DNA of 64,000 nt, from IMG/VR virus record IMGVR_UViG_3300020469_000021, positions 32,001 through 96,000 of that record. One strand, written 5' to 3'. Within the stretch, counting starts at the first letter, position 1. Each line of letters begins with the position of its first letter. The notes below the pieces were generated by a model. That model had not been told where the DNA came from. It did no database searches and saw only the letters and a list, made by a program, of their open reading frames with translations. A program made the position numbers and the translations under genes. This DNA comes from a virus. Positions 41,850-56,666 of the stretch are shown piece after piece.

Positions 41850-42270
41850 TTTTCCAAGAGGCAGGACAAGCAATGGAGTTGAAAAACCTTAAATGGTTAG
41901 TAAGAAAATTGCTGGAGAGCCTTTAGAAGGACTGAAGTTACCTATAGAGCTTAAGTAGTTACTGAAGAAAATTTTTTCACTTTTATTTTCCTAGCTACTA
42001 CTTCGTATGAAGTAAGTTTCGCAAAAGGAGTTACTGACGAAATTCACTCTTGGAAAACACTTTGGAAGGGCTTATAATCCTTCCTGTGGGTGACTGAACT
42101 AATCCTGTCGTGAGCGGGATAAAGTATGCAAATTCCCTGTGGTAGGGTAGGTAGAGTCCAATCGGATGAGCTTAGTACGATTCCAAGTATAGTTTGTAGT
42201 TCGAAGTAGGTAATCCTGAACTGATGTTCACGCCGAAAAGTTGGAGGTATACAGTAGTCCTCCCCCACAC
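41850..42270 (+). ncRNA. Candidate large structured non-coding RNA
   Basis: 11-bp long-range helix 41850-41860/42047-42057; second domain closed by TGTGGG 42085/CCCACA 42264; many hairpins; no credible ORF. Confidence 0.65.
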
Positions 42271-42296
42271 CTATTTGTTTCATATTATTATTCCTG

Positions 42297-42445
42297 TTTG
42301 TGGTAAAGGTTGTATTTGGACTGAAACGTTTGAATAACCTTCTTTGCGAAGGGGTACTAAAGGGTATTGTAGCGGATTTCGTAGTCTGGTTATTTCATCG
42401 CCCTTCCCGTAACTACATAAAAGCGTGGAACACTTTCCCACTCCT
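42297..42445 (+). ncRNA. Second structured RNA or 3' domain of the large ncRNA
   Basis: Closing GTGGTAAAG/CTTTCCCAC; long hairpin AAGGTTGTATTTGGAC-TGAAAC-GTTTGAATAACCTT; AAGGG/CCCTT stem. Confidence 0.45.
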
Positions 42446-42448
42446 CCG

Positions 42449-42487
42449 ACCCTCACCTGCTTTTTTTTGCAGGTGGGGGTTTTTTTG
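42449..42487 (+). terminator. Intrinsic terminator
   Basis: ACCCTCACCTGC/GCAGGTGGGGGT stem followed by T-run. Confidence 0.8.
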
Positions 42488-42778
42488 TTGTTGACTTTGT
42501 GAGTTATTCTGTCAGTATATAGGTATGAATACATTAAAAGAAATTATAGATTGTTGGGGGTTTGTTAATTCTATTCAACTTAAAGAGTTGGCTCAGTATT
42601 TTCCAAACACTCCATTAGTTATTAAATGGGGTATGCGTCAGAGGGAGATCTGCCAAGCTTGCGATGTTGCTGATCGCATCGAAAAGGTAGAGTCTGAGTC
42701 AGACGACTATGTTCGTGAAGTTTTCATTCAAGTAGACAACTTCCGCCAATTAAAATCAGTACTAGGAGTAGAGGAATA

Positions 42779-43177
42779 ATGGAACTAAGAAATCAAAACA
42801 ATATTAGATACAAAATTGATTATAATAAAAAGGTTTTTGTTTATAAGAATTTACATAGAGACTGTTGGTCTATAAAACAGGGCGGGTTGGTAAAAGCCCA
42901 TGCCAATGAAGTTGATCTTTGGGATTGTGCTTTTCAAGTCAATGCCACAGGCAGGAAGAAAGTTTTGGAAGAGAGGCGCAAGAATGTTCACGCAGGAATC
43001 AAGGGTTATATGGATAAGGAGCCTATCGCATCGTACGAAGATTCATTTGAAGTAACTTACAATCCCTACAAGTACGAGACTTTTGTATACAAAAACTCAG
43101 AGAACCCAATCTACGCCTCTCATTCAGTCAAGCTATCACACAACAAAGTGCTGGCAGACTATGGACCCGAGCGATAA
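42779..43177 (+). CDS. Conserved phage hypothetical protein
   Basis: VYKNLH..CWSI...GLV..H...GR..VL.E.RKNVHA.I.G motif. Confidence 0.65.
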   Translation: MELRNQNNIRYKIDYNKKVFVYKNLHRDCWSIKQGGLVKAHANEVDLWDCAFQVNATGRKKVLEERRKNVHAGIKGYMDKEPIASYEDSFEVTYNPYKYETFVYKNSENPIYASHSVKLSHNKVLADYGPER

Positions 43178-43311
43178 CAATCTAAACAATAAAACAAATA
43201 TATGGAAATAATTATAATATCTATAGCAGTAGGAATATCAATGTATATTAGAACAAATAATCTTATGAATTAAAATTTGCAATACTATAATCAAGCGCGT
43301 AGCTTTTTGGC

Positions 43312-43380
43312 CTAAGTCACTGAAGATCAAAGGGTTACGGCGCTCAGAGCGGTGTAAGTTGTTGGTATTCAGTAAGTTAA
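43312..43380. repeat. 69-bp tripartite element, copy 1
   Basis: CTAAGTCACTGAAGATCAAAGGGTTAC-GGCGCTCAGAGCGGT-GTAAGTTGTTGGTATTCAGTAAGTTAA. Confidence 0.85.
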
Positions 43381-44864
43381 GTTTTTTTAAAAAAAAAGTG
43401 TTGACTTAACCCAAGAATCTGTCAAACTAATAATTATGAAGATTGAACAAGACAGCGAATACCATCTCTCACTTGCCATTGAGCAAGTGATGATGAAACT
43501 ACAAAGCCTTGGAGCTACCAACGAAGATAGTCCTTTTGGAGAAACATTTGCCACGCTTGCCGTGCTATTAATGAAAGTTAGAGAAGAGGAGGAACAAAAT
43601 GAAAATGCAGATGCTTAGAGTTAAGATTCCCGTTTCCCAATGTATTGAGGAAGTTAAAGATTATATTTTATATAGTGAAATGGAGGGCGAGGTAGACAAG
43701 ACAGATCCTTGGTACTCAACCTTCGAGCTGCTAGAAGAACTAAAACAAAAAGTACTAGACGAGGAGGAAATGTCAAATGAATAAACTAATGGAAGCACAC
43801 AAGAAAAAGTTGGAGGAAAGATGTTCAATCACCGACGCAATCTCTGGAGTTGCAGATGAACTCTACGAAATGCGAAAGAATAACGATGAAACTTTCTTTC
43901 AATTAAAAAACATAGCGGGATCTCTCGACCTAGTTAGTCAGTACCTCTACGACATTAGTTGGGAGTTAAAGAAAAGCAACGAAAAAAGTGTTGACACAGA
44001 CGCATTAATTCAATAGTATTTTAACTATGATTACATTAGACACACCCGAACAAATCGATATGTTTCGATTCCTCAGTCTCAAATCCGCACTCAAGCTAGA
44101 GTGTCTTGGAATGAGCAGAAGAGGTCAATCAGCATATTCAATTATTAAAGCCGAGTACGGATTCAAAGGCAACAAGAAGTCCGTCTTAGAACAAATGGAA
44201 CAAATTATTAAGGAGTTTAAAAATGACTAAAGCACAGATAGAATCAAGAGTAGAAGGTTGGAATTGGAATATGAATATCTTCGAGATATATGATGAGCTC
44301 AGAGATGGGCATACGGGAGAAGAGCAAGAGCAACTTTTAACTTTTGCTTATAATTATTTCAATAACGATACAATGATCAAAGAGCTTGCGGATCATTTTT
44401 GCATAACTATTCATACAGACGAAGACTCACCAATCCCTTGCTAAGATGGAATTTGAGCAAAGAATGATAGATTATGCCCAAAAGTGGTATGAAGTAAACG
44501 ACCTAGAGACAGAGAAAAAGAACGGAAACGATCTTTATCTTCGAGTCAATGACAATGTATTTACTGAAGTCTCACACTGCGACATCAGACAAAAAGCCAT
44601 GCTATGGTTAGAATCAGAATTAGAAGGAGTAAACAATTATTAAAATGAACAATTACATAGAAGCAATCTGTATCGGCAAACCATTGGACTTGCCCGAATA
44701 CAATGAAGACACAGAACTTTGGGAGGTTCACTTTGAGGAATCACCCACCCCTTGGCATCCATATGATGAACAAGATTTAATTTCTTATAGTTGTGACTCA
44801 GCCGAAGAGGCATGCGAGTTGTACAACTATTACAACCAAAACCCTGTAACAAAGGATAATACAA

Positions 44865-45098
44865 ATGAAGAAGATAATTAATAAAATTAAAAGAATGTTC
44901 AACCCATTGTATAGCTTGGTCTATACTACTAAGGATGGACGCACCGAAATGTATACCATTGAGAAGCCTTTGCATGTCAATGAGTTTGGCAATGTAACTG
45001 AGAAGCTTGTTACTGCAGGCTTCAGAGCGTACTGCCATAACAAGAATGGTATTCGCTCCTTTCGATATGATAGAATCGTATCGCTAAATCGAGCCTAA
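44865..45098 (+). CDS. WYL-like small protein
   Basis: Y.TKDG.T...AYCH...GIRSFRYDRI. Confidence 0.5.
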   Translation: MKKIINKIKRMFNPLYSLVYTTKDGRTEMYTIEKPLHVNEFGNVTEKLVTAGFRAYCHNKNGIRSFRYDRIVSLNRA

Positions 45099-45148
45099 CC
45101 AAATAAGCCTTTGAGTATGTTCGTGTTATAGGGTTAATAGAAAACTTC

Positions 45149-45217
45149 GCAAGTCGTTGGTTATCAGCGGCTTGCGTCGCCCTGAGCGGCGTAAGTGCTT
45201 GATAGCTAGCAGGTTAT
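45149..45217. repeat. 69-bp tripartite element, copy 2
   Basis: GCAAGTCGTTGGTTATCAGCGGCTTGC-GTCGCCCTGAGCGGC-GTAAGTGCTTGATAGCTAGCAGGTTAT. Confidence 0.9.
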
Positions 45218-45312
45218 GACTATTTTAACTTTACTTGATTTTTTTTCTTGCGTTTTACTTATCACCTGTCATACTCATATATACAAAGCAACTTAAACAT
45301 AAGGAGAAAATC

Positions 45313-45723
45313 ATGGGGCTAGATCAATACGCATACGCTAAAGACGAAAACGAAGAGACAGAACATCTCGCAGAGTGGAGAAAACACAACCGCCTCCAAG
45401 GATATATGGAGAAACTTTGGGAGGACAAGGGCAGACCATTTGATGGTCAGTTGGATGATAACCCAATGGGAGATTTCAACTGCGTGCCTGTCGAGCTAAC
45501 GCTTACTGACCTTGAGCAACTCGAAGCAGTTATCGCTCAAAAGGATATGCCTGAGACAGGCGGTTTTTTCTTTGGTAGTGACTCCTACTCTTGGGAGCAA
45601 GAGGATGGAAAGCCCTACAAGGATGGCGATTACTTTTACAAAGAAACTGACTTGCAGTTTATATCTGATGCATACAAAGCCATGGCAAAAGGCAAGAAAG
45701 TATTTTACTCTTCTTGGTGGTAA
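45313..45723 (+). CDS. Conserved phage hypothetical protein (start corrected to MGLDQY)
   Basis: SD AAGGAG upstream; MGLDQY..WRKHN...GFFFG...YSSWW. Confidence 0.7.
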   Translation: MGLDQYAYAKDENEETEHLAEWRKHNRLQGYMEKLWEDKGRPFDGQLDDNPMGDFNCVPVELTLTDLEQLEAVIAQKDMPETGGFFFGSDSYSWEQEDGKPYKDGDYFYKETDLQFISDAYKAMAKGKKVFYSSWW

Positions 45724-46423
45724 ACGCTTGACAACTTAACGAAATTTTCTTAAGATTTATACTATGGAAACAATAGATATCACACCAACATGGTCAGCAC
45801 TCATTCCCATTATGGTTGAGGTGTTGAAGAGCCCAAAAGCAAGCAACTCTGCAAAACAAGAAGTTGTGGTTGAGTTAAAGCGTTTAGCTAAAATCGTTGA
45901 CGATCAAAACAGAAAGGCGAAACAAAATGGATAACTTAACTGAACAAGAATTAAAGGCAGTCTTTGATGTGGTTAATGTTTACGAACCCGAAGACATAAG
46001 GCATGTCTACCCCGCAATGGCGACTGATGAATTCATGAAAGATATAAACTCTGCATGGAGAAAGATTTTAAACTCTCTTGACAATACCAACAACAACTGA
46101 GAAAATACTATTATGCACGAAAAAATAGAGCAACCCGTAAATTCCTACACCGAATTCGAGAAGCTTCAATGGGCTTGTGATAAGCCAATGCCATCGATTG
46201 GCTCAGAAGTTAATGTCAAGATCAATGGTATTGGTCGATCAAAAGTCTTAAAGTATTTTGTGGAGTATGGCTTCATTGGAATGCTTGTTCAGCCTTTCGA
46301 CCCACCCGCTTGGTATATAAAGCAAAACGGGGCAGATGAGCCTTGTCATGTTTTTCCTGCTGAGACTGAAGAGCTTAGGGTTGAGAAAAAAGGCTTTTAC
46401 GAATCTATTCACAACGCAATGGC

Positions 46424-46492
46424 GTAAGTCACTCTATAACAACAAGTTAGGCCGCTCTGGGCGGCGCAAGTCTTTGCCGTCCAACGACTTAC
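46424..46492. repeat. 69-bp tripartite element, copy 3
   Basis: GTAAGTCACTCTATAACAACAAGTTAG-GCCGCTCTGGGCGGC-GCAAGTCTTTGCCGTCCAACGACTTAC; its TAA is the stop of 46113-46427. Confidence 0.9.
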
Positions 46493-46989
46493 GAGACTAT
46501 AAGCTAAACTTATTTTAGCTATAAGCGACAAAAGAAACTTCACTTAAAAACTTTTTTTTGCTTGCGGTTTACTCAGAATCTGTCAGTATATATATTATGA
46601 AAGCAAGGGAAATTAAGATTAGAAAGCCGATCCTTTTCACTAAGGCTCGCCCCTTCAAGATGAAGAACAAAACCTTAGAGAGAAAACTTAAACACAAAAA
46701 ACGCTATGAATATTAACGAAGATTTCACCAACGAATTTGAATGCCCCGAAGCCCAAGAGGTTATGGATCAAAGCATGGATTTCATATTTGACAAACTTAT
46801 CAACCCCATGAATGAAATGGGAAAGCTCACCGAAGAGGACTTGGCAATGATTAGCCTTATCGGCATCAGTCTCAAGATCATTTCCGAACAAGCGTCACTT
46901 TACGAAAAGTCTGTATCAGAAGATACTTCACAAAACTTTTACAAAAATTAATCCTTGACAATCAACAAAAAAACTGAGAGAATATAATC

Positions 46990-47919
46990 ATGTCAGAAAC
47001 AAAAAACAGAATTAACCTCGCCATCTGCGGAGGCGAGCATAAGGTAGTAACGCTAGGGGAAGTCGCTGATGTAGTGACTCCCGATATCGAGTATCGCAAA
47101 GAGGCGAACAAGGACGGAACGCACTCCGTTTCTTATCAGCCTATTTCGCACAATCTCTTGATTGACAAGACTCGTAACCATCTTGAGCAAGGTGGGTTTG
47201 AAGTTGTAGACGAGTGCCACAACCTCGCAAGAGGTGGCAAACGCTACTTTGGATTGTTTGAGGTCACTCACCCAAACAGGGAAAACACCGAGAGAGGCAC
47301 AATCGTTGGCTTGCGTAATGCTCACGACAAGTGCTTTCCTGCGGGATTGTGTGCAGGTGATGCTCCATTTGTTTGCGACAACCTCATCTTTACCAATTCG
47401 GTCAAGTTGGCTCGCAGACACACTAAGAACATCCTTTCCGAGCTAGATCATGTGATCTCTCGCACTTTGGGCAAGTTGTTCAATTTTTGGATGGGTCAAG
47501 ATCAACGCATCGTATCCTACAAGGATTTTGATTTGACTAACGCTCAAGTCAACGATCTTGTGATTCGTGCGTACAAAGCAGGTGCAGTCAGCAAGACTAA
47601 GATTGCTGATGTGGTTGACCAATGGGAAAAGTCTGATCACACCGAGTTTTGGGACAGAAACATGAACTCCCTTTACAATGCCTTTACCGAGGTATACAAG
47701 GGCAATCTTGTTGCCTTGCCTCAACGCTCTGAGGCATTGCACTCTGTTCTTGACTCTGAGGTCGGGTTCGATCTTTCAGCTTTCGATCCTCAAGTCGAGG
47801 AAGCTGAACTTGTCGAAGTTGCTCATGCCCCTGCCCCTCAAGTTCTTGAGGTAGCAGGTAACATAGATGGCGAAGTTCCTGCCGATCTATATGATGCAGA
47901 GGATGACTACCCTTTCTAA
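46990..47919 (+). CDS. DUF932-family protein with acidic tail
   Basis: PISH, G.RYFGL, GLRNAHDK, FVCDNL.F, RRHT, LYNAFTE. Confidence 0.7.
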   Translation: MSETKNRINLAICGGEHKVVTLGEVADVVTPDIEYRKEANKDGTHSVSYQPISHNLLIDKTRNHLEQGGFEVVDECHNLARGGKRYFGLFEVTHPNRENTERGTIVGLRNAHDKCFPAGLCAGDAPFVCDNLIFTNSVKLARRHTKNILSELDHVISRTLGKLFNFWMGQDQRIVSYKDFDLTNAQVNDLVIRAYKAGAVSKTKIADVVDQWEKSDHTEFWDRNMNSLYNAFTEVYKGNLVALPQRSEALHSVLDSEVGFDLSAFDPQVEEAELVEVAHAPAPQVLEVAGNIDGEVPADLYDAEDDYPF

Positions 47920-47944
47920 AGGGTTGGTCGCCAAATAGGCAAAT

Positions 47945-47973
47945 AAGCCCCCTCACCCCGAGGGGGCTTTTTT
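47945..47973 (+). terminator. Intrinsic terminator
   Basis: AAGCCCCCTC/GAGGGGGCTT stem plus T-run. Confidence 0.85.
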
Positions 47974-47991
47974 ATTGGGCATTTACTTTCT

Positions 47992-48060
47992 GTAAGTCAT
48001 TGATGATCAAGGGCTTACGGCGCTCTGAGCGGCGCAAACTATTGATTGGTAGGTACTTAC
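47992..48060. repeat. 69-bp tripartite element, copy 4
   Basis: GTAAGTCATTGATGATCAAGGGCTTAC-GGCGCTCTGAGCGGC-GCAAACTATTGATTGGTAGGTACTTAC. Confidence 0.9.
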
Positions 48061-48143
48061 GACAAAAAGAAAAAAAAGTATTGACTTCACTCGATATTCT
48101 GTCACAATTGTATTTAGTTCTTTTGACAATCAATTTCATTTGT

Positions 48144-48260
48144 GCCCTCTTAGTTTACATTGGTGAAAACAATGGCTCTCGGCAGTATACTAGTTAAGCC
48201 TGCGAGCGACCGATCATCGTTTTGGAGTCAAAGAGGTGAGTTCGAATCTCACAGAGGGCT
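48144..48260 (+). tRNA. tRNA-like RNA with 43-nt anticodon-loop insertion (possible intron-containing tRNA-Gln(TTG))
   Basis: Acceptor GCCCTCT/AGAGGGC, D stem GTTT/AAAC, T arm GTGAG-TTCGAAT-CTCAC; 50-nt loop ending TT-TTG-GA; no CCA. Confidence 0.6.
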
Positions 48261-48261
48261 G

Positions 48262-48336
48262 CTTTTTCTGTAGATGCGAAAGCATTGAACAACGAGGCGT
48301 CAGCACACGCCTACAACCTTCGGGAGAGAGAAAAAG
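48262..48336 (+). ncRNA. Small multibranch RNA candidate
   Basis: CTTTTTCT/AGAAAAAG closing helix; ATGC-GAAA-GCAT, AGGCGT/ACGCCT and CC-TTCG-GG hairpins. Confidence 0.5.
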
Positions 48337-48346
48337 GTTCACAATT

Positions 48347-48439
48347 TTGAGAGTGCAGTACCAAGCCTTATAGGCACCTAGTGTCACATCCTCGGTAAGA
48401 CGGGGTAGCATTTACCACGGGCGGCTCCGTGGCTCTCAA
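48347..48439 (+). ncRNA. Small multibranch RNA candidate
   Basis: TTGAGAG/CTCTCAA closing helix; GTGC/GCAC, CCTCG/CGGGG and CCACGG/CCGTGG stems. Confidence 0.5.
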
Positions 48440-48779
48440 TTCACTTTATTATGACACAACAGCAAACATTCTCACTAGCATTCTTAATCATCATGATTGC
48501 CATCGCAATAGTTCATTTTCTTGGGCTTAGCGGTTGACAATCAATAAAAAATTGTTTAGATTTATATCATGAAACATTCAGAGAGCGGTAATCGTAAAGT
48601 TCTAAAGCAAATAAAGAAATGCCCAGATATTGAGGAGATTCGGGCGACTGCAAATGGGTATATGATCATGGCAAAGAACGGAGAGCAATACTTGGCTCAT
48701 ATGTCTGCCAAAGCATTTCACCCGCTTCGCAGGTGGCTAAAGAACAATACAAGACTAAAGGCATTAAAGTTCTAATTTC

Positions 48780-48848
48780 ATAAGCCTTTGCGATTCAAGG
48801 GTTTACGACGCCCTGAGCGACACAAGTCCTTGCCGGGCAACAACTTAC
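48780..48848. repeat. 69-bp tripartite element, copy 5
   Basis: ATAAGCCTTTGCGATTCAAGGGTTTAC-GACGCCCTGAGCGAC-ACAAGTCCTTGCCGGGCAACAACTTAC. Confidence 0.88.
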
Positions 48849-49732
48849 AGCGTTAAGCAAAACTTTCTTGCGATTTAGCATTTTTTTTCTTGCAATTAAG
48901 GCAAAACGGGCTTAGTATCTATGTATGATTATTAACTACGACATACCAAACTACATTTCAGATTATCAAGCCGATGCCCCAAAGAGTAGACTCAAGGGGT
49001 TTGATGATTTAGTTTTCGAGCCTCATTTAGGATTTGCCGATGGCAAGGCTATTCAAGCCATACTTGATTTTGGTTCGAGGAATCAATTCACCATATCAGT
49101 CGTGCAAAACACTAAAGACAACATTGGATTGTATGGCAACCCTTCGGATAACACTTACGAAGTCGCAATGTGGTATGATGGCAGAGAAACCATGCTTCCT
49201 TTGTCTGTTGGTGATGATGTTCTTGCATGGCAAACTCCCGTTCAGATCACTAAGCTAATGCATCAAGCACATCTTAACGATTTTGCTTGGGTCACCCTTC
49301 TTCATAACATTAGACAAGACTACAACAAAGAATTAGGTCTTGACAACTTAGACCAATACTGAGAGAATACTATCATGACAGATCGAAACCAACAACTCAC
49401 GGGCAACGCTTTGCTCATTTACTTAATGTCTCGCTTTAACATGACAAAGCCAGAAGCTCTCAACTCAATGAGAAGAGCAGGGCACAACACGGACAACCTA
49501 TAATTATGAGCTATAACGGATGGAAAAATAGAGAGACTTGGAATGTCGCCCTTTGGATCGGCAACGACGAGGGAATGTATAATTTCGCCAAAGAGTGTGG
49601 AACTTATGATAACTTTGTCGAGCAGATGAGAGAGGTTGGATATACCGAGACTCCCGACAGGGTAGCTTACAACGACAGCAGCCTTGACCTTCCAAGGCTC
49701 GAAGAGTATTTTGATGAACTAAGAGAAGACGA

Positions 49733-49801
49733 CTAAGTCGTTGACAATCAGCGACTTGCGTCGCTCTGGGCGCCGGAAAGTCTTGGTATTCAAGGACTTA
49801 C
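49733..49801. repeat. 69-bp tripartite element, copy 6
   Basis: CTAAGTCGTTGACAATCAGCGACTTGC-GTCGCTCTGGGCGCC-GGAAAGTCTTGGTATTCAAGGACTTAC; its TAA is the stop of 49506-49736. Confidence 0.9.
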
Positions 49802-50093
49802 AACTATTTTTACTTAGTTGCAATTTTTTTCTTGTGTTTTACTGAGAATCTGTCAGTATATAGGAATGAAAGAAACAGTAAAAGTACTAATGTCCCGCGA
49901 TGGTTTAACCCAAGCCGAGGCGGTCAAGCAAGTTGTTCAATTCTTTAACGAAATGAAAGCTGATTGGGAAGCCGGCGGCGACCTTTCCGAATGGGAGCAT
50001 ATTTTCATGAGTGATTTTGGGCTTGAGCCTGATTACTTTGAGGATTTTATTTTTAGGCTTGCATAGTCAAACTAATTCAACTAGTATTCTATT

Positions 50094-50810
50094 ATGATTA
50101 AAACAACTCTACTCACCGCAGGGAATGCCAAGATTACAAAGGGCGAGGCATTCGGATATTTAACTAAAGGCATTCACTTAGCTCCCGCTAATTTGTCGGG
50201 TTACGAAGTTTGCCAATGGCGTTCTAAAGGTTGCACTATGGCTTGCCTCAACACAGCAGGTCGTGGGCAAATGAATTCTGTTCAAGATTCACGCATTGCC
50301 AAGACTAAGTTGTTCTTTGAGCAAAGGTTTGACTTCCTTGCCAAACTATCAAAAGAAATTACTTCCACGATTAAGTCGGCAAGCAAGAAAGGTTTGCAAG
50401 CGGTCTTCCGCCCCAACCTTACAAGCGACATTGCATGGGAAAACATTATCAATGAAGATGGTGTGAATTTGTTTGAGAAGCATAGCAAAACTCAATTTTA
50501 TGATTATACTAAGTCATTCAAAAGGATGCAACGCTTTCTCAATGGTGAATTGCCTAGTAACTACCACTTGACTTTTTCTTGCTCCGAGACTAACGAAAAG
50601 ATTGCCAAACTTGTTTTAGAGATGGGCGGCAATGTTGCGGTTGTCTTTCGTAACCAATTACCCGACACTTGGAATGGTGTCGAGGTTGTCAATGGCGACG
50701 AATCAGATTTGCGATTTCTTGACAAGCAAAGCGTTGTCGTTGGACTTATAGAAAAAGGTCTTGCCAAAAAAGATTTGACAGGATTCGTTAAAGAAGGTAT
50801 AAATTCATAA
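50094..50810 (+). CDS. Gp88-like phage protein
   Basis: LAPA...C......C...CL..AGRG, RPN.TSDI.W, FYDYTK, NYHLTFS, NVAVVF, GD.SDLRFLD. Confidence 0.7.
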   Translation: MIKTTLLTAGNAKITKGEAFGYLTKGIHLAPANLSGYEVCQWRSKGCTMACLNTAGRGQMNSVQDSRIAKTKLFFEQRFDFLAKLSKEITSTIKSASKKGLQAVFRPNLTSDIAWENIINEDGVNLFEKHSKTQFYDYTKSFKRMQRFLNGELPSNYHLTFSCSETNEKIAKLVLEMGGNVAVVFRNQLPDTWNGVEVVNGDESDLRFLDKQSVVVGLIEKGLAKKDLTGFVKEGINS

Positions 50811-50976
50811 TGGACTATTACGATTCAGCCGAGGACATCACTATAACGCAAGACCGAGCTTTGCAAGAATTGGCAAGGCACGGGATCACATCCAATGAGG
50901 ACATTTTAGAGTTCTTTGCAGATGTGGGCGAGTCTCAAGAGTATGACGCACAAGAGGTTTTAGATTGGCTAGGCTA

Positions 50977-51045
50977 CTAAGTCATTGATAATCAGGCACT
51001 TAGGGCGCTCTGGGCGGCGCAAGTCATTGAAGTGCAAGGACTTAC
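50977..51045. repeat. 69-bp tripartite element, copy 7
   Basis: CTAAGTCATTGATAATCAGGCACTTAG-GGCGCTCTGGGCGGC-GCAAGTCATTGAAGTGCAAGGACTTAC; its TAA ends ORF 50810-50980. Confidence 0.9.
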
Positions 51046-51148
51046 GTATTATTAGAGAAACTTATAAAGGATATAAGCGGGCGGACAAAGTGATTATTTT
51101 ACATTTTTTTTTGTTGCAGTTTGCTCAAAAGTCCTTAGTATTTTATGT

Positions 51149-51334
51149 ATGATAACTATTAAGAAAAACGCTAACTTTCCCAAGTGGATTCAAGTCTTCG
51201 CCTTCGGTAATTTCATTGACGAGGTAGAAGGTAACGCAAAGGCATTGCGTCTAGCAAAGACTATTGCCAAGAAAAATGGAGTCGCCCATATTAATGTTTT
51301 TGGTGAAGTAAAAAAAATTGAAGAAAATGCCTAA
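51149..51334 (+). CDS. Small hypothetical protein, paralog of 53828-54004
   Basis: MITIKKNANF.K..QVFAFG.FIDEV. Confidence 0.7.
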   Translation: MITIKKNANFPKWIQVFAFGNFIDEVEGNAKALRLAKTIAKKNGVAHINVFGEVKKIEENA

Positions 51335-52040
51335 TGGGCTTGACATTCAACCGATAATTTAAGAGAATACTATCATGGAAAATCAAAAAGAACAACTCAC
51401 TCAAGAACAACGCATCGAGCTTATCCGTCAAGCAGTCGAACAAACAAAAGGAGTCGCTCTCAGCGATCAAGCCCAAGAGTTTGTAGAGGATGTTAAAACT
51501 GAAGAGTTAGTCGTCGAACATGGTTTGTTTGACACTCACAAAGAAGACTTGGAAGACGAGTCTCAATTTTTGTTCAGCGACTCTGCTGAAGAAATTGATG
51601 AAGAAGACGAATCTATCGGAGTAAGTTCCGAGATGAGTGAAGTCTATAACAACAACAACTAAGGAGGAAAACATATTATGCAATCAGAATTCTCATTCAT
51701 ACAAAAAGCTAATGCGGTGGCAAAGTATCAACCGCAAAATGTAAACAAACAAGGAGACAAACTTTGCTTCTCTTACATGAATAATGCAGGCGTTATGGTC
51801 AATGCTTTTTATGAGTATAGCTCACGCAAGTTCAAGTCTGCGGTCAAAGGCAGTCAGTACGGAGATGGTGTTGCCATCAGAAACCTTGTAGCAAAACCTG
51901 TTGTTGAAGGAATCTTGAGCAATGGATGAGTGGGTTGATCTTTTAATCTTCTTGCCGTGGGCTTTAGCTTTTGCTTTTTTGTGGCATTGTAATGAACATA
52001 TTTAGTGGTTAGTTATATTATTAGTTAGTATGTTAGTGTG

Positions 52041-52084
52041 GGCCCCTCACTCGCCCTTCAAAAAGGCGGATGGGGGGCTTTTTT
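52041..52084. terminator. Terminator at the convergence of the + and - blocks
   Basis: GC-rich hairpin GCCCCTCA..CGCC/GGCG..TGGGGGGC plus T-run. Confidence 0.7.
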
Positions 52085-52134
52085 GCAAATAGTCAAATAA
52101 AATCTTGAGGGCGGGCGATAGAACAATGCTTTTT

Positions 52135-52203
52135 GTAAGTCGTTGAACATCAGTTACTTGCGTCGCTCAGGGCGGCATAAGTAGCTGACTATAAAAGACT
52201 TAA
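52135..52203. repeat. 69-bp tripartite element, copy 8
   Basis: GTAAGTCGTTGAACATCAGTTACTTGC-GTCGCTCAGGGCGGC-ATAAGTAGCTGACTATAAAAGACTTAA; TTA at 52200 is the stop of the - strand gene. Confidence 0.9.
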
Positions 52204-52570
52204 GCTAAGTAACGCTCCCAGTCTTCTTGGTCAAAGCTGTCAAACGCTCCCCATGTATCAAACTCTATCCACTGGTGGACGACTTCACGAAGGCTTTCGT
52301 TTTCTCTGTCCCACAGGTGGATTTCTAGCTGAAACTCAGCTTTTAGTGGAGAGTTGATATATTGCTCTGCTAAAGCGTAGCAGCTACTAAGACCATCTCG
52401 ATCTTTTGGAGTAGAGAGTGCTACCTCTCCGTCGTGAACTAATTCGTATCTTAACATATCCATAAAGTAGTTTAATTTTGGTTAAAAGTCAAGAGATTTT
52501 TAAACAAATTTTAACAAACACAATGCCAAATAACTGCCCCGGGCAGAATTTTGCTTTCAACTATGTTTCC

Positions 52571-52639
52571 ATAAGGTGTTGGTGATCAATGACTTATGTC
52601 GCTCAGGGCGGCGTAAACCCTTGATTATCAAGGATTAAT
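52571..52639. repeat. 69-bp tripartite element, copy 9
   Basis: ATAAGGTGTTGGTGATCAATGACTTAT-GTCGCTCAGGGCGGC-GTAAACCCTTGATTATCAAGGATTAAT; overlaps the stop of 52635-52895. Confidence 0.9.
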
Positions 52640-53762
52640 GAAACTGTTTTAAGGTTTTCTTGCGGGTGACTGCTCGGGTGATTAGCTCGTCAGGTTCTAG
52701 CATATGGGCGTAGACGCCCGTGGCGTCTTGCTCGCCATAGCCTCGGGAGTACCAAGGTCCGCCCGTATTTATATCCTTGCAGGCAAGGGCTGCGTTAATG
52801 CCTCGGTCTTGCCAAAACTTTTTCCAAGCCAAGTCAACACTTTGAGAGAGACCTGCAAGTGTTTCGTTGTATCGTGCAATTTCTTCCTCACTCATTATGA
52901 GTTGGCTTTTGAAAGCGTTGGGATTACTAAAGCAAAGAAAACCATAAGAATCATTTCGATCATTTTACTTACCTAAGTAGAATTTTACTTGCTCGGATGT
53001 GGCAGGACTCAAGTCTTTAAACAAAACCTCGGATTCTATCATGTCGGAAGCGTGATGCTTTAGCGTTGCAACCTTTTGGGTTTGGTCTGCCCGAAGTACT
53101 CGGACGATACAAGCGTTTGATTTTGAGAAGTAGATTTGTCCATTTGTTATTTTCATAATTATAAAGTATTATAGTTTTTAGAGAATTGCAAGTTTTTTTT
53201 TACTTTTTTTGTCTCTTAGGCAAGACAAATGCGAGGAGGATTTTTTCTCTTTCAGTTAGGATCTGCTCCTCCTCTTGCCATCTACGGATGACTTGCTGAG
53301 CGGCAATCTCAGCCTCGACTCGAGAGCGTTCCTCAAATTCGAGATCGGTCATGCCGAAGGCGTGGGCGGTGCGGGTGAGTGAGTCATTATTTTCCATAAG
53401 TATAAGATTAAAGATTTGTAATTATATTTTAAAACTAAACTATTTTTTAGTGAATTGCAAGGGAAAAGCGAATTATTTTACCGCTTCCACTATCATGTCG
53501 TAAGTCCAAACGTGACCACCGACATCTTCCCAAAGATCATAAGCCACCGCCATGGGGCTTGCTTGGATACGTACAAGACCATTGTCTTGAATGAATTTTT
53601 CTATTTTCTTATCTAACATACCTATAAGGTAGCATATAAAACGCATATTTACAAGATTTTTTTTTACTATTAGCTTCTTTTTAGCTGAGCTTATAGCTTG
53701 CTAAACCCGGGCTTATACTTGCCGCGAGTCATAAGTTGGCACGCTATATGAACATCGGTTTC

Positions 53763-53831
53763 GTAAGTCATTGAATGTCAGCTAGTTAGCCGGCGCAGGG
53801 CGGCCTAAAGCCCTGATTATCAACGATTTAG
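53763..53831. repeat. 69-bp tripartite element, copy 10
   Basis: GTAAGTCATTGAATGTCAGCTAGTTAG-CCGGCGCAGGGCGGC-CTAAAGCCCTGATTATCAACGATTTAG; TTA at 53828 is a stop. Confidence 0.88.
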
Positions 53832-54004
53832 GACACTTCTTGCATCAAGCCGTCAACATTGATGAAGTCTTGCTTGTGTTGCTTGGCTAGCTTGGTAGCC
53901 ATGCGTAAGGCTTTACTACGACGCTCTACCTCGTCGATGTATTGCCCAAAGGCGAACACTTGAAAGAACTTAGAGAAGTTAGGGTTTTGTTTTATTGTTA
54001 TCAT
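53828..54004 (-). CDS. Small hypothetical protein (58 aa, not in track), paralog of 51149-51334
   Basis: MITIKQNPNFSKFFQVFAFGQYIDEVERRSKALRMATKLAK... Confidence 0.7.
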   Translation of the reverse strand: MITIKQNPNFSKFFQVFAFGQYIDEVERRSKALRMATKLAKQHKQDFINVDGLMQEVS

Positions 54005-54605
54005 TTTAGTATATGTATTGATCTGTTGAGTCGATGAAGGAGTGAAGGATTGCTACTGACATAACCTCCCAAGGATTATTATCCCAATCAGCTTTCCCGA
54101 AAGCCCAAGCATGATTTAGCTCTTGGTCAAGGTCAGCACTTACTCGCATCTTGTAAGTCCGTTGTTCAGATGGGTTGCTTTTGAGCCTATCGACAACTTG
54201 AATGGTTACAGCTTGAAACTCGACTCTGCGAGTGGGAACATTTCTATTTGAAGTATTTAACATATTATAAACTTAAAGGATTTTTTGTGGAATTGCAAGA
54301 AAAAAATGAATTATTTTTACTCCCATTGGGAGTGATGACCAAAGTCGATGTCCTCGACTTCTTGGAAGTCAAGGAGTGCAACCTTGTCCTGAAGGTCGCC
54401 GATTTCGTTGCGAATTGCAACAAGGTCAGCGGAAGAGAGGACGGAGTCCGCAAGGACTTCGCGAAGGAGAGAGATTTTGTTGAGCATTTCGGACTTAGTC
54501 ATAATTTTTTTTGTGTTAGGTTTTCTTTATCTTATATATACAAAGTAGCAGAGTTTTCGCCAAAAGTCAAACTTTTTTTCACTTTTTTTTCATTTTTTTT
54601 GTGTT

Positions 54606-54674
54606 GTAAGTCGTTGGAAATGAGATACTTACGCCGCCTTGCGCCGGCTAACCGGCTGATAGTCAACGACTTAT
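54606..54674. repeat. 69-bp tripartite element, copy 11
   Basis: GTAAGTCGTTGGAAATGAGATACTTAC-GCCGCCTTGCGCCGG-CTAACCGGCTGATAGTCAACGACTTAT. Confidence 0.88.
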
Positions 54675-55694
54675 GAAAGAGCCGTTCAGGTTTCGTGCCA
54701 ATTTAGATGACGAGAGGATTGGTCATCTTTGTGTTGCTAGCAAACCAATCGAATGAGTTAATTTCTTGACCGTTTAAAACAGGCTCAAAGTTAACTTGGT
54801 GAACGCCTGCATTTGCAATGCCGTTAACGCGTTCGCGTGTGGTGGGAGTATTCCACCCCGCCAAGCTCCAACGGACTAGCCCGTCAAAGTCGCGTTTTAC
54901 GATGGCGTTACCATGTAGCCAAACGGTTTGCCCGTCTGTCTCGGTGTTGCCGACTTTTTTGGATGTGCCTTGCTCGAAGGCTTCTTTTATTTGTTCTGTT
55001 ACTTTTCTCATGGTATTATTTAAAAAATGGATGATGGCGAACATCACGAAGGCGGATGCCGTGAACGATATTCGTTCTGTACTTGCGAACATTTGCACAA
55101 GCCCCCCAAGTTGGGTGATCGATTGGGTCATCAGTAAGTTGATAGATTTTCTTGCAACGCGTCAGCACAACATCGCCCTTTTTGAATGTGTTAGTGTTTT
55201 TCATATATATAAAGTAGCACGTTAAAGGTTAAAGGTCAAATTATTTTTTGCAGTTATTTATCATTGCCAACCTGTCTTGAGCTTTCCATTCGTCAAGCCA
55301 AGCTTGGTTCTTTGCCAAGAGATCCCGGGCAATGCTGACCATTTCGGCATCGGTATCGTGAGCGATGATCTCCCGAAGGAGTACCATCTCGGCTTTAACT
55401 TTTGAAGTGAGGCTAGCTGATTTATTCATAAGTATAACTTAGCAAAAAAACCCCGAAAAAGCGAGAACAAAAATCGGCATTAGGTGCGTTTGTAGTTCAG
55501 CTAATGGGGTTATTAGTAGCTCTACTACTTACCCCCACCCCGGTTTTTTAAAAAAAAAGATTGACAAATCGCTTGACAATTGGCGGGGGGTGGTTTTCTT
55601 CAATATGAAAACACAAAAGTATACTATAGAATCATGGTGGTCAAAAAAAATCGACGGCCAATTTTCTACAGAACAAACAGCTTGGCGGCTTGCT

Positions 55695-55889
55695 TTATTT
55701 TTTCTTAATTAGTTTTTCCTGAAAATCAAACTCAATAGCCACTCGTACTTTATCTATATCTCTATTTTCTAAGATAAGTTTTGCGGGTGTTTCATTATTA
55801 AGTTTTTTATTTTCAGTTTTCAACCAAACTGTCGCTTCGTAGGGAGGAGCCACTTGTGACAGAGTTTCCATGATCTTAGTTTTAGTCAT
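55695..55889 (-). CDS. Xre/MbcA/ParS antitoxin toxin-binding domain protein
   Basis: A..WLKTENKKLNNETPAKLI......V matches the A..WL..PN..L....P..LL pattern. Confidence 0.6.
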   Translation of the reverse strand: MTKTKIMETLSQVAPPYEATVWLKTENKKLNNETPAKLILENRDIDKVRVAIEFDFQEKLIKKK

Positions 55890-55946
55890 CTATCTTATAT
55901 TATGTTATTTTATGTTTATTTCAATTTATAGTGTACTATTGTTGTA

Positions 55947-56666
55947 GTGATGGCTAAAAAGTCTACCAACAAGCCTGAGATATATATACCTCAGTTACCT
56001 CAAACTATTCACGTCAATTCTTTAAAACTAACAGAGAAACAAAAAAGATTTATTTCTATTGCGTTTAATGAAGATACTAATATAATGTTTATTGCCGGCC
56101 CGGCAGGGTCAACAAAAACTTATATGGCAGTATATGCGGCATTAAGATTATTGAGCGCTAAAGAAGAATTAGATTTACTGTATATAAGAACTGTTATAGA
56201 AAGCGCTGAAAAAGGCCTCGGGGCTTTGCCGGGTGATATTGATGACAAGTTTAATCCTTATATATCTCCTTTAGAAGACAAATTATCTGAAATGCTTCCA
56301 AAAACAAATACTTGCAAAAGAGAGCTTTTAGAAAATGGTAGAATTTCAGCTATGCCAATAAACTATTTAAGAGGCGCAAGCTGGACAGATAAAGTAGTTG
56401 TAGCAGATGAAGCACAAAACTTTACATATAAAGAGCTGACCACATTGCTTACAAGAGTAGGGGAAAATTGTAAGCTTTTTATCTGCGGTGATTTTATGCA
56501 AAGCGACATTAATGGCAAAAGCGGATTTGGCCCAATGTTCGATTTATTTAATGACCCAGAAAGTAAAGACAGAGGAATACATGCTTTTAAATTTGGGAAA
56601 GAAGATATTCTAAGAAGCGAGATATTAAAATTTATTATATCAAAGCTAGAAGGAAAAGCGAGCTAA
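55947..56666 (+). CDS. phoH: PhoH-family protein
   Basis: GPAGSTKT, LG.LPG...K..PY..P, YLRG.S, DEAQN, LLTRVG, GD..QSDI, DILRS. Confidence 0.92.
   Translation: MMAKKSTNKPEIYIPQLPQTIHVNSLKLTEKQKRFISIAFNEDTNIMFIAGPAGSTKTYMAVYAALRLLSAKEELDLLYIRTVIESAEKGLGALPGDIDDKFNPYISPLEDKLSEMLPKTNTCKRELLENGRISAMPINYLRGASWTDKVVVADEAQNFTYKELTTLLTRVGENCKLFICGDFMQSDINGKSGFGPMFDLFNDPESKDRGIHAFKFGKEDILRSEILKFIISKLEGKAS

Follow-up and report, generated by a model that had tools for sequence, protein, structure and literature searches.

In E. coli, BIME-1 elements (also called RIP or RIB) comprise two inverted repetitive extragenic palindromes (REPs) that flank a site for integration host factor (IHF). They are thought to act through nucleoid proteins and on the boundaries of transcription units, and REPs are spread by the RAYT transposase. 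IHF sites are also known upstream of σ54 promoters and of phage early promoters (e.g., λ pL and Mu Pe). The stoperators of mycobacteriophage L5 and the C1 operators of P1 are dispersed intergenic protein sites, and those of L5 block transcription elongation between genes. In T4-type phages, promoter-early stem-loops (PeSLs) combine a terminator with a promoter in one repeat; they lie on either side of ORFans in hyperplastic regions and mediate the shuffling of these modules (Arbiol et al. 2010, PMC2839356; Comeau et al. 2014, PMC4122927). Here we describe a three-part, 69-bp intergenic element that is present in 11 copies in a phage genome recovered from marine metagenomes (IMG/VR record IMGVR_UViG_3300020469_000021). 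The genome is a 104,956-bp single contig, and the window that was analyzed is the 64,000-nucleotide stretch comprising bases 32,001 to 96,000 of that contig, in whose numbering all positions are given below. In the reading that we favor, and on which our confidence is evenly divided, each element would be a boundary module bound by a DNA-bending protein of the host, and would also channel the exchange of gene cassettes.

A repeat finder followed by MAFFT alignment recovered 11 copies with zero indels, each comprising a 27-bp arm, a 15-bp GC-rich core and a second 27-bp arm, with 19 invariant columns and a mean column identity of 69%. A position weight matrix (PWM) built from the 11 copies scored them at 71 to 89 bits and the best other site in the whole genome at -2 bits, giving a genome-wide total of exactly 11, all confined to 43312-54674. 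A looser arm pattern found 16 arms in this block, a single chance-like match outside it and none with the reversed control. The two arms start 42 bp apart in all 11 pairs. The 11 starts, the ungapped copies, the consensus of arms and core, the 42-bp distance and the lack of copies beyond an 11.4-kb block had all been put forward in a first-pass annotation of the bare sequence, and each is borne out by the alignment and the PWM; the array is far in excess of chance. That annotation also described a core that reads with local transcription. The pattern is present, with CTG on the coding strand in copies 2 to 10 and flipped in copies 1 and 11 (the + strand carries the genes to ~51.9 kb and the − strand those between 52.2 and 55.4 kb), but the polarity is weak: it hangs essentially on one central base (9/11; P of ~0.07, two-sided, by our own binomial estimate), and the asymmetry of the arms follows GC skew. 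Nothing in the analysis indicates that the array marks the "earliest" gene region, as had been suggested. The G+C fraction of the cassette island (42000-56000) is 0.38 to 0.43, compared to 0.31 to 0.36 in the remaining window; as the elements form too small a fraction to account for this, the cassette genes themselves differ in composition.

Palindromes beside stop codons could act in RNA rather than in DNA, as one to three hairpins at mRNA 3′ ends that serve as factor-independent terminators, RNase III-type processing sites or stabilizers between early units, as in the T7 early region or in REPs. All copies lie at gene 3′ ends, often overlapping the stop codon, and their predicted RNA folds are stable (-12.6 to -33.5 kcal/mol; z-scores of -1.7 to -5.7), as is expected of any palindrome. 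The core dyad is kept by compensatory changes, with positions 30 and 40 forming C:G or A:U and positions 33 and 37 forming U:A, C:G or G:C. The arms lack such covariation. Among the 271 distinct arms (of 327 in all) that an arm matrix detected in the window and 25 related phage loci, mutual information is highest between neighboring positions and never between palindromic partners. Substitutions at partner positions 2 and 26 are independent (T-A 205, T-G 30, C-A 29, C-G 3), and positions 7-21 and 8-20 carry conserved mismatches in about half of the arms, those at 8-20 being mostly G-G. In pairing models run on 66 ungapped 69-mers, three hairpins paired 76.0% of cells compared to 74.0% in shuffled sequences, with the excess coming mainly from the core, while a single long hairpin of arm with arm was rejected (71.3% paired, 72.4% in shuffles). 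The excess of G·T over A·C between arm partners correlates with local GC skew (ρ = 0.58, P = 0.02, with no choice of orientation) rather than with the transcribed strand (ρ = -0.18), and in copies 8 and 9 the G·T positions of the + strand would be A·C mismatches in the sense RNA. Contigs from two metatranscriptome runs are short, lie within genes and never bridge an element; being assembled, they have unreadable ends and strand, and they may derive from DNA.

A terminator scan called none of the 11 elements an intrinsic terminator, and most lack a T run directly after the core or the right arm, so that most transcripts would have no following U tract. A canonical intrinsic terminator with a 10-bp GC-rich stem and a T run (47945-47969, + strand) stands 23 bp upstream of copy 4, so the element is not required as a terminator at that junction. 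A CCCCCC-GAAA-GGGGGG-T7 terminator likewise stands beside most elements of a relative (locus L004), in the same order of gene, terminator and element. From these patterns of substitution and pairing we conclude that the arms are conserved as double-stranded sequence, and that dyad- or structure-like conservation is found in the core only. We regard an RNA-level element as an unlikely account of the array. The first-pass annotation had proposed setting arm covariation against a binding logo as a check and had favored a protein-bound site; no covariation was found, the degenerate positions match the IHF consensus, and the arms behave as a predicted duplex recognition sequence rather than an RNA or single-stranded DNA hairpin.

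The arms resemble IHF sites. The IHF consensus is WATCAR-N4-TTR, and the arm follows the pattern Y2-A-A-N4-T-T-G-A-T-W14-A-T-C-A-R19-N4-T-T-R26, which is two inverted copies of the consensus sharing the central W (YAA-N4-TTGAT-W-ATCAR-N4-TTR). Position 19 is solely A or G, position 26 almost solely A or G, and position 2 almost solely T or C. A perfect WATCAR-N4-TTR is found on one strand in 168 of the 327 arms and on the other in 67. The two AA/TT steps of the arm lie 9 bp apart, the same distance that separates the pair of proline-induced kinks when IHF or HU is bound to DNA. A search for genes of the HU/IHF family (PF00216) was negative in six phage records that carry the element, namely this phage and five others, of which one is a 100%-complete genome of 170.5 kb. 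A DNABII binder, if there is one, would therefore be the host's. The phage arms are nearer to the form of the palindrome in Akkermansia, Fibrobacter and Planctomycetota than to that in Microscillaceae, which is a hint only as to the host.

The same palindrome is present in bacterial chromosomes. The 25-bp arm alone was found at 70 loci in genomes and metagenome-assembled genomes (MAGs), where we estimate that ~1 to 7 matches would arise by chance, in Bacteroidota, Verrucomicrobiota, Fibrobacterota, Planctomycetota, WOR-3, Ignavibacteria and several Proteobacteria. Most of these are single sites in ordinary intergenic DNA beside housekeeping genes (argS, GH20, DHDPS), and the genes that flank them share no common partner family. 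Three Akkermansia-type genomes (L063:3067, L080:2667 and L069:7538) have one and the same 25-mer upstream of argS, which encodes arginyl-tRNA synthetase, and in each of them strong promoters diverge from it on both sides. A degenerate pattern found 24 sites in Akkermansia muciniphila (control, 0) and 2 to 4 each in a Fibrobacter, an Aureliella and a Pantoea, with 0 to 1 in the reversed control throughout. The sampled Verrucomicrobiota gave 17 sites in 40 genomes, compared to 1 in the control.

In Planctomycetota the palindrome lies 28 to 37 bp upstream of σ54-type promoters (TGGCAC-N5-YTGC). The region upstream of a σ54 promoter, between enhancer and promoter, is a textbook position for IHF. 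This composite had 3 matches in 151 Planctomycetota genomes and none in the control, with a further example at locus L086 (by our own estimate, chance would give ~0.005). At L051:6777-6845 and L086:4508-4576 the center of the palindrome is 41 bp before the −24 element (TGGCAC-N5-CTGCT), and the intervening sequences differ; genome G167 holds two further places with a palindrome and a σ54-type promoter. A few short MAG contigs contain the complete two-arm module, and these are probably phage DNA that was mis-binned. One of these, L068, from a MAG binned as Enterobacterales and likewise probably mis-binned, carries full two-arm elements beside TGGCAC-N5-CTGCC, and some relatives may have σ54-like promoters.

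One genome stands out by its number of copies. A Microscillaceae MAG (G001, 6.8 Mb; loci L028 and L096 to L105) holds 5,940 copies of the palindrome by the degenerate pattern, in the form TAAnTnnTTGATWATCAAnnAnTTA, several of them in pairs 46 bp apart. Over the 104 kb of it that was examined, sites occur at 0.88 per kb, 90% of them outside open reading frames (ORFs). The center of these sites follows T-W-A, as the IHF consensus requires, although the search pattern did not force it, and the N4 positions and flanks have no excess of complementarity. The Microscillaceae palindrome is thus, by its predicted properties, likewise a sequence-specific duplex site and not a hairpin, and its non-complementary N4 positions argue against the RNA-level account of the phage arms as well. 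Amplification is specific to this lineage, since 40 other sampled Bacteroidota genomes have 0 to 3 strict sites each. The first-pass annotation had named a match to a described repeat, or to a host-wide REP or miniature inverted-repeat transposable element (MITE), as grounds for abandoning its claim. This applies in part, since the arm is also found in bacteria, where it recurs as a palindrome and, in one Microscillaceae genome, as a genome-wide intergenic repeat; the other sampled Bacteroidota and Verrucomicrobiota have 0 to 3 sites per genome.

Among phages the module forms a wider family. A stringent pattern of left arm and core found 25 loci in IMG/VR contigs of 11 to 170 kb, with the arm consensus GTAAGTCGTTGAyTATCAAggACTTAC, and in each of three whole records the array is one block of 11 to 14 kb. 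Arms are strongly conserved across lineages, and cores vary in both sequence and length. The cores are GC-rich, alike within a genome and unlike between genomes, with a length that varies by lineage, and most are symmetric about their center with compensatory changes. The spacing from arm to arm is quantized by lineage: 42 bp in 64 pairs (a class that includes this phage, L012, L007 and L020), 41 bp in 31, 40 bp in 5 and 50 bp in 48, with rare spacings of 44, 53 and 61 to 62 bp in relatives and mixtures of 40/42/44 or 41/42 inside some genomes. The proposal that a fixed length reflects a strict geometric constraint of four helical turns therefore fares differently at the two scales. Length is constant within this genome, and varies across the family (40, 41, 42, 44, 50 and 53 bp in relatives); the geometry is lineage specific, with 48 pairs in a 50-bp class of ~4.8 turns against 64 pairs at 42 bp. 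Tandem versions with 3 to 5 arms at 34- to 44-bp spacing are found at L004:1896-2006, L004:2510-2650 and L005:6052-6229, from which it follows that the module can expand by duplication of arms.

Searches for a described counterpart were negative. A megablast search with 12 kb of the window for named relatives gave no match, nor did a blastn search of a well-conserved element against 50,697 named phage records. An Rfam covariance scan of 41-57 kb, run at an E-value threshold, found a manA RNA, a tRNA-like match and one sub-threshold sRNA, none of them on the elements. A literature search by arm and center strings found no paper that describes the element sequence: the phage DLP6 paper shares just an 11-mer beside terminators, and a match in the M13 literature is a primer. 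As the first-pass annotation had supposed, then, the element carries no name in Rfam, among named phages or in the papers found, and the 69-bp module is apparently undescribed.

Within the array, every one of the 11 copies adjoins the 3′ end of a gene, and in six the stop codon is inside an arm. When read with transcription, 10 of the 11 are followed by A/T-rich DNA and then, at ~19 to 113 bp, by a σ70-like promoter; the predicted sites have the form TTGAC(A/T)-16/17-xAxxxT and are preceded by A/T runs. Typically a gene is followed by a terminator, which may be absent, then by the element, an A/T tract, a promoter and the next gene. Copy 1 (43312-43380) lies 135 bp after ORF 42779-43177 (L5_gp82-like) and 20 bp before a TTGACT promoter-like site, and copy 2 (45149-45217) is separated by 50 bp from the preceding ORF 44865-45098 and by ~29 bp from the T-rich tract and cTTGCG promoter-like site that follow. 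In copies 3 (46424-46492, with a degenerate left arm), 6 (49733-49801) and 7 (50977-51045), element positions 2-4 are the TAA stop codon of ORFs 46113-46427, 49506-49736 and 50810-50980, respectively, and a cassette of the GP88 family comes next after copy 6. Copy 4 (47992-48060) follows the DUF932 gene (46990-47919) and its terminator, and a tRNA-like gene has its TTGACT promoter 20 bp beyond the element. A gap of 5 bp separates ORF 48569-48775 from copy 5 (48780-48848), and one of 19 bp separates copy 5 from a TTGCGA/TTGCAA promoter-like region. On the right-hand side, where genes are on the − strand, the right arms of copies 8 (52135-52203), 9 (52571-52639) and 10 (53763-53831) contain the stop codons of ORFs 52200-52463, 52635-52895 and 53828-54004; copy 8 stands where two genes converge and has a promoter on neither side, and copy 10 is inverted relative to copy 11. 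Copy 11 (54606-54674) is 29 bp beyond the stop codon of ORF 54703-55131 (−, Kyano_Gp96-like); an A-rich tract and a TTGACT site come after it on the minus strand.

Such placement would also suit a dimeric regulator encoded by the phage, which could bind every arm and switch accessory or early units off or on together, in the manner of the P1 C1 operators or the L5 stoperators, perhaps with the lineage-specific core as a coevolving site. The array is limited to one block per phage, its sites stand between units and beside promoters, the cores are homogeneous within and divergent between genomes, and the arms, N4 bases included, are conserved beyond what an E. coli-type IHF would need. Set against this is the occurrence of the same 25-mer in chromosomal intergenic DNA of many phyla and upstream of σ54 promoters, which points to a cellular protein. 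Pfam and PHROG scans of ten ORFs in the block returned DUF932, GP88, L5_gp82 and Kyano_Gp96 and no DNA-binding candidate, and the polarity of the arms is independent of transcription, unlike that of stoperators. We regard a regulator of the phage's own as improbable.

Cassette shuffling between relatives is real. The closest relative (L012, ~90% identity) is collinear from 46.6 to 53.2 kb apart from one replacement, in which a single-gene cassette at 52176-52483, between copy 8 and the conserved promoter before copy 9, has been cleanly exchanged; it is rearranged between 53.2 and 54.7 kb. L020, L010, L009, L017 and L019 hold the same genes at 65 to 83% identity with order and orientation permuted. 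A homology block of L020 (49734-50981) begins where copy 6 begins and ends a few bases into copy 7, and one of L009 starts at 47993, the start of copy 4. In variant contigs from other marine metagenomes, the joint 52644→53258 lies 5 bp past copy 9 and the joint 54305→54606 ends exactly on the first base of copy 11. Variants have loose ends within the right arm of copy 1 (43366/43377) and at 53758, 5 bp before copy 10, and in variants X5 and X7 the segment 52082-52484, which spans copy 8, is replaced. With their flanks, copies 10 and 11 form a 105-nt inverted repeat (53732-53836 and 54601-54705; 74%) around a two-gene segment, and this segment is rearranged in L012 and in natural variants.

Five phage records that carry the element, including one complete genome, gave no tyrosine recombinase (PF00589), serine recombinase or Y1 transposase (PF01797), which makes ordinary homologous exchange the probable route of any recombination. 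The arm would be a natural place for it, because it is the only sequence, with the nearby promoter, that otherwise unrelated cassettes have in common, and it is plausible that elements and repeated promoters serve as crossover points for general recombination. The idea of an architectural or recombination site, raised by the first-pass annotation, thus stands in part: relatives and variants do differ at the elements in several cases, consistent with a role as cassette boundaries, and no recombinase of the three families is detectable.

Repeats that travel with shuffled cassettes might have no dedicated function at all, and be selfish or hitchhiking sequences (MITE- or REP-like, or products of gene conversion) carried along with promoter-gene cassettes, to which they would lend homology for recombination. 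Cores homogenized within genomes, the tandem multi-arm arrays of L004 and L005, the shuffling among relatives and the thousands of copies in the Microscillaceae genome, which encodes three Y1 transposase-like (PF01797) ORFs, are all as this would predict. The phages have no Y1 transposase, however, and spacing is quantized per lineage and placement is strictly intergenic, at 3′ ends. The same key positions are also kept across phages whose flanking genes are at 65 to 80% identity, and across phyla, which argues for purifying selection at particular bases. We think it very unlikely that the element is such a passenger. A dedicated integron-like system is unlikely too, and that the elements are attC-like sites of a site-specific recombinase we hardly credit: genes do end inside the repeat, imperfect palindromes bound the cassettes and some variant joints are exactly at element edges, but none of the recombinases was found, each cassette has its own promoter, many rearrangement joints are at promoters instead of elements, sequence is conserved rather than structure (the opposite of attC), and the 3-bp arm center is unfit for the crossover region of a tyrosine recombinase, which is 6 to 8 bp.

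We return to the favored reading of a host-bound boundary module, for which we envisage the following mechanism. One host HU/IHF (DNABII) dimer would bind each arm and bend it sharply, so that the occupied element would form a compact, symmetric nucleoprotein knot. This knot could insulate neighboring units in both directions, as a roadblock to RNA polymerase reading through, as a barrier to transcription-driven supercoiling, or as both, and the shape of the DNA upstream of the following early-type promoter might depend on it as well. Ordinary homologous recombination at the arms could then allow cassettes to be gained, lost and reshuffled, as has been proposed for the PeSLs of T4-type phages. 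A more specific proposal, which we put forward tentatively and consider possible but doubtful, is that the arm is the optimal twofold symmetric site of an IHF-like DNABII protein conserved in Fibrobacterota-Bacteroidota, Planctomycetota-Verrucomicrobiota and some Proteobacteria, and that a large family of uncultured phages would recruit two dimers of it per element to form rigid insulators of protein and DNA between early or accessory cassettes. On this proposal, transcription units would be ended and separated by protein, independently of direction, and the same sites would channel cassette exchange; the Microscillaceae genome, with its ~6,000 intergenic copies, would be a natural test bed.

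Several observations weigh against the boundary module or parts of it. The putative binder is named from the resemblance of motifs. Classical IHF sites are asymmetric, and the phage arms also keep the N4 bases (GTCG/ggAC), which E. coli IHF does not read, making a different palindrome-binding protein possible. A spacing of 42 bp is 4.0 turns and one of 50 bp is 4.8 turns; as the two classes differ by 0.76 turn, no single bend geometry can hold across the family. Nor is there helical phasing between element and promoter, their distances of ~19 to 113 bp being aperiodic. Eight of the 11 copies have no separate canonical terminator nearby, which leaves room for a role in RNA, and some bacterial copies look terminator-like, with extended complementary or A-run/T-run flanks. 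As for exchange, other variant joints are at promoters or gene starts (e.g., 49400→49506 and 45738→45871), and the ends of homology blocks are not enriched at elements (10/94, compared to 8% expected; P = 0.22). With no significant global enrichment, the case for recombination at elements rests on the individual clean examples.

Other features of the island accompany the array. Its promoters fall into two families, TTGACA-N17-GAGAAT and TTGACTt...TCTGTCAGTATAT, with sites on the + strand at 46077, 46954, 49339 and 51339 and also at 42483, 43390, 46558, 48070 and 49824. In both families the −10 ends ~6 to 8 nt before the ATG, which suggests that many cassette genes have leaderless or near-leaderless mRNAs. 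The manA RNA motif (RF01745) is matched over its full length at 42064-42273 on the + strand (76.3 bits; gathering score, 55.2), and a strong terminator comes after it at 42448-42481, just upstream of the array. The tRNA-like gene (48144-48260, + strand; Rfam tRNA, 38.6 bits), directly after copy 4 and its TTGACT promoter, was missed by ARAGORN and has a 49-nt insertion at the position of the anticodon loop; it may be an intron-containing or a decoy tRNA. At the far side the array is bordered by a PhoH-like gene (55947-56666, + strand), which is also a conserved anchor beside the arrays of L004, L006, L015, L018, L021 and L024.

If the favored reading is true, many uncultured marine and freshwater phages order their most plastic island with a module that borrows a host protein. 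Dozens of small genes with strong promoters could in this way be neighbors without transcriptional interference, and it would be explained why the gain, loss and shuffling of cassettes are directed to safe positions. The element would also provide a sequence tag for finding accessory-gene islands, probably of host-takeover or antidefense genes, in phage metagenomes. The reading would further imply a high-affinity site for nucleoid proteins, conserved but unstudied, in Verrucomicrobiota, Planctomycetota, Fibrobacterota and Bacteroidota, including the cultivable Akkermansia with its 24 sites.

By analogy, the closest described concept appears to be the PeSL of T4-type phages. Both are short composite repeats between the small genes, mostly of unknown function, of a hyperplastic region; both have a GC-rich dyad followed by an AT-rich stretch and a σ70-like promoter; both flank cassettes that are inserted, deleted, replaced and permuted between relatives; and no dedicated recombinase is known for either. 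The PeSL papers (PMC2839356, PMC4122927) describe no flanking palindromes or IHF, whereas the best-conserved part here is the pair of 27-bp IHF-like arms with their quantized spacing. The GC dyad here lacks a U tract, and separate terminators stand beside some copies. Neither is there a sequence match to named phages, and the element-bearing phages are uncultured marine phages of another host group.

Like BIME-1 (RIP), the element is a three-part, multicopy extragenic repeat located where genes end, and both contain GC-rich palindromes together with IHF-type sites. The arrangement differs: the IHF-like sites are outside and the GC palindrome inside, and the sites are doubled and symmetric. The phage copies are confined to one 11-kb block, no RAYT (PF01797) was found in the phages, and, unlike REPs, the phage arms show no hairpin covariation. 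Like the IHF sites of known promoters, the arm fits WATCAR-N4-TTR; the elements lie upstream of early-type promoters in the phage, and the Planctomycetota palindrome lies 28 to 37 bp upstream of σ54-type −24/−12 elements. A classical site occurs singly, lacks symmetry and often has an A tract, while the arm, as a predicted site, has two inverted halves and a conserved N4, at a variable distance from the promoter. L5 stoperators and P1 C1 operators are similar in that many copies of one predicted protein site are spread across the intergenic gaps of a phage genome. Those sites are short and lack symmetry, point along the direction of transcription and are the targets of a repressor that the phage itself encodes, in contrast to elements that are palindromic, paired, independent of gene direction and common to bacterial chromosomes. 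The element is a variation on PeSL-like cassettes and IHF-site repeats, and not a categorically new system.

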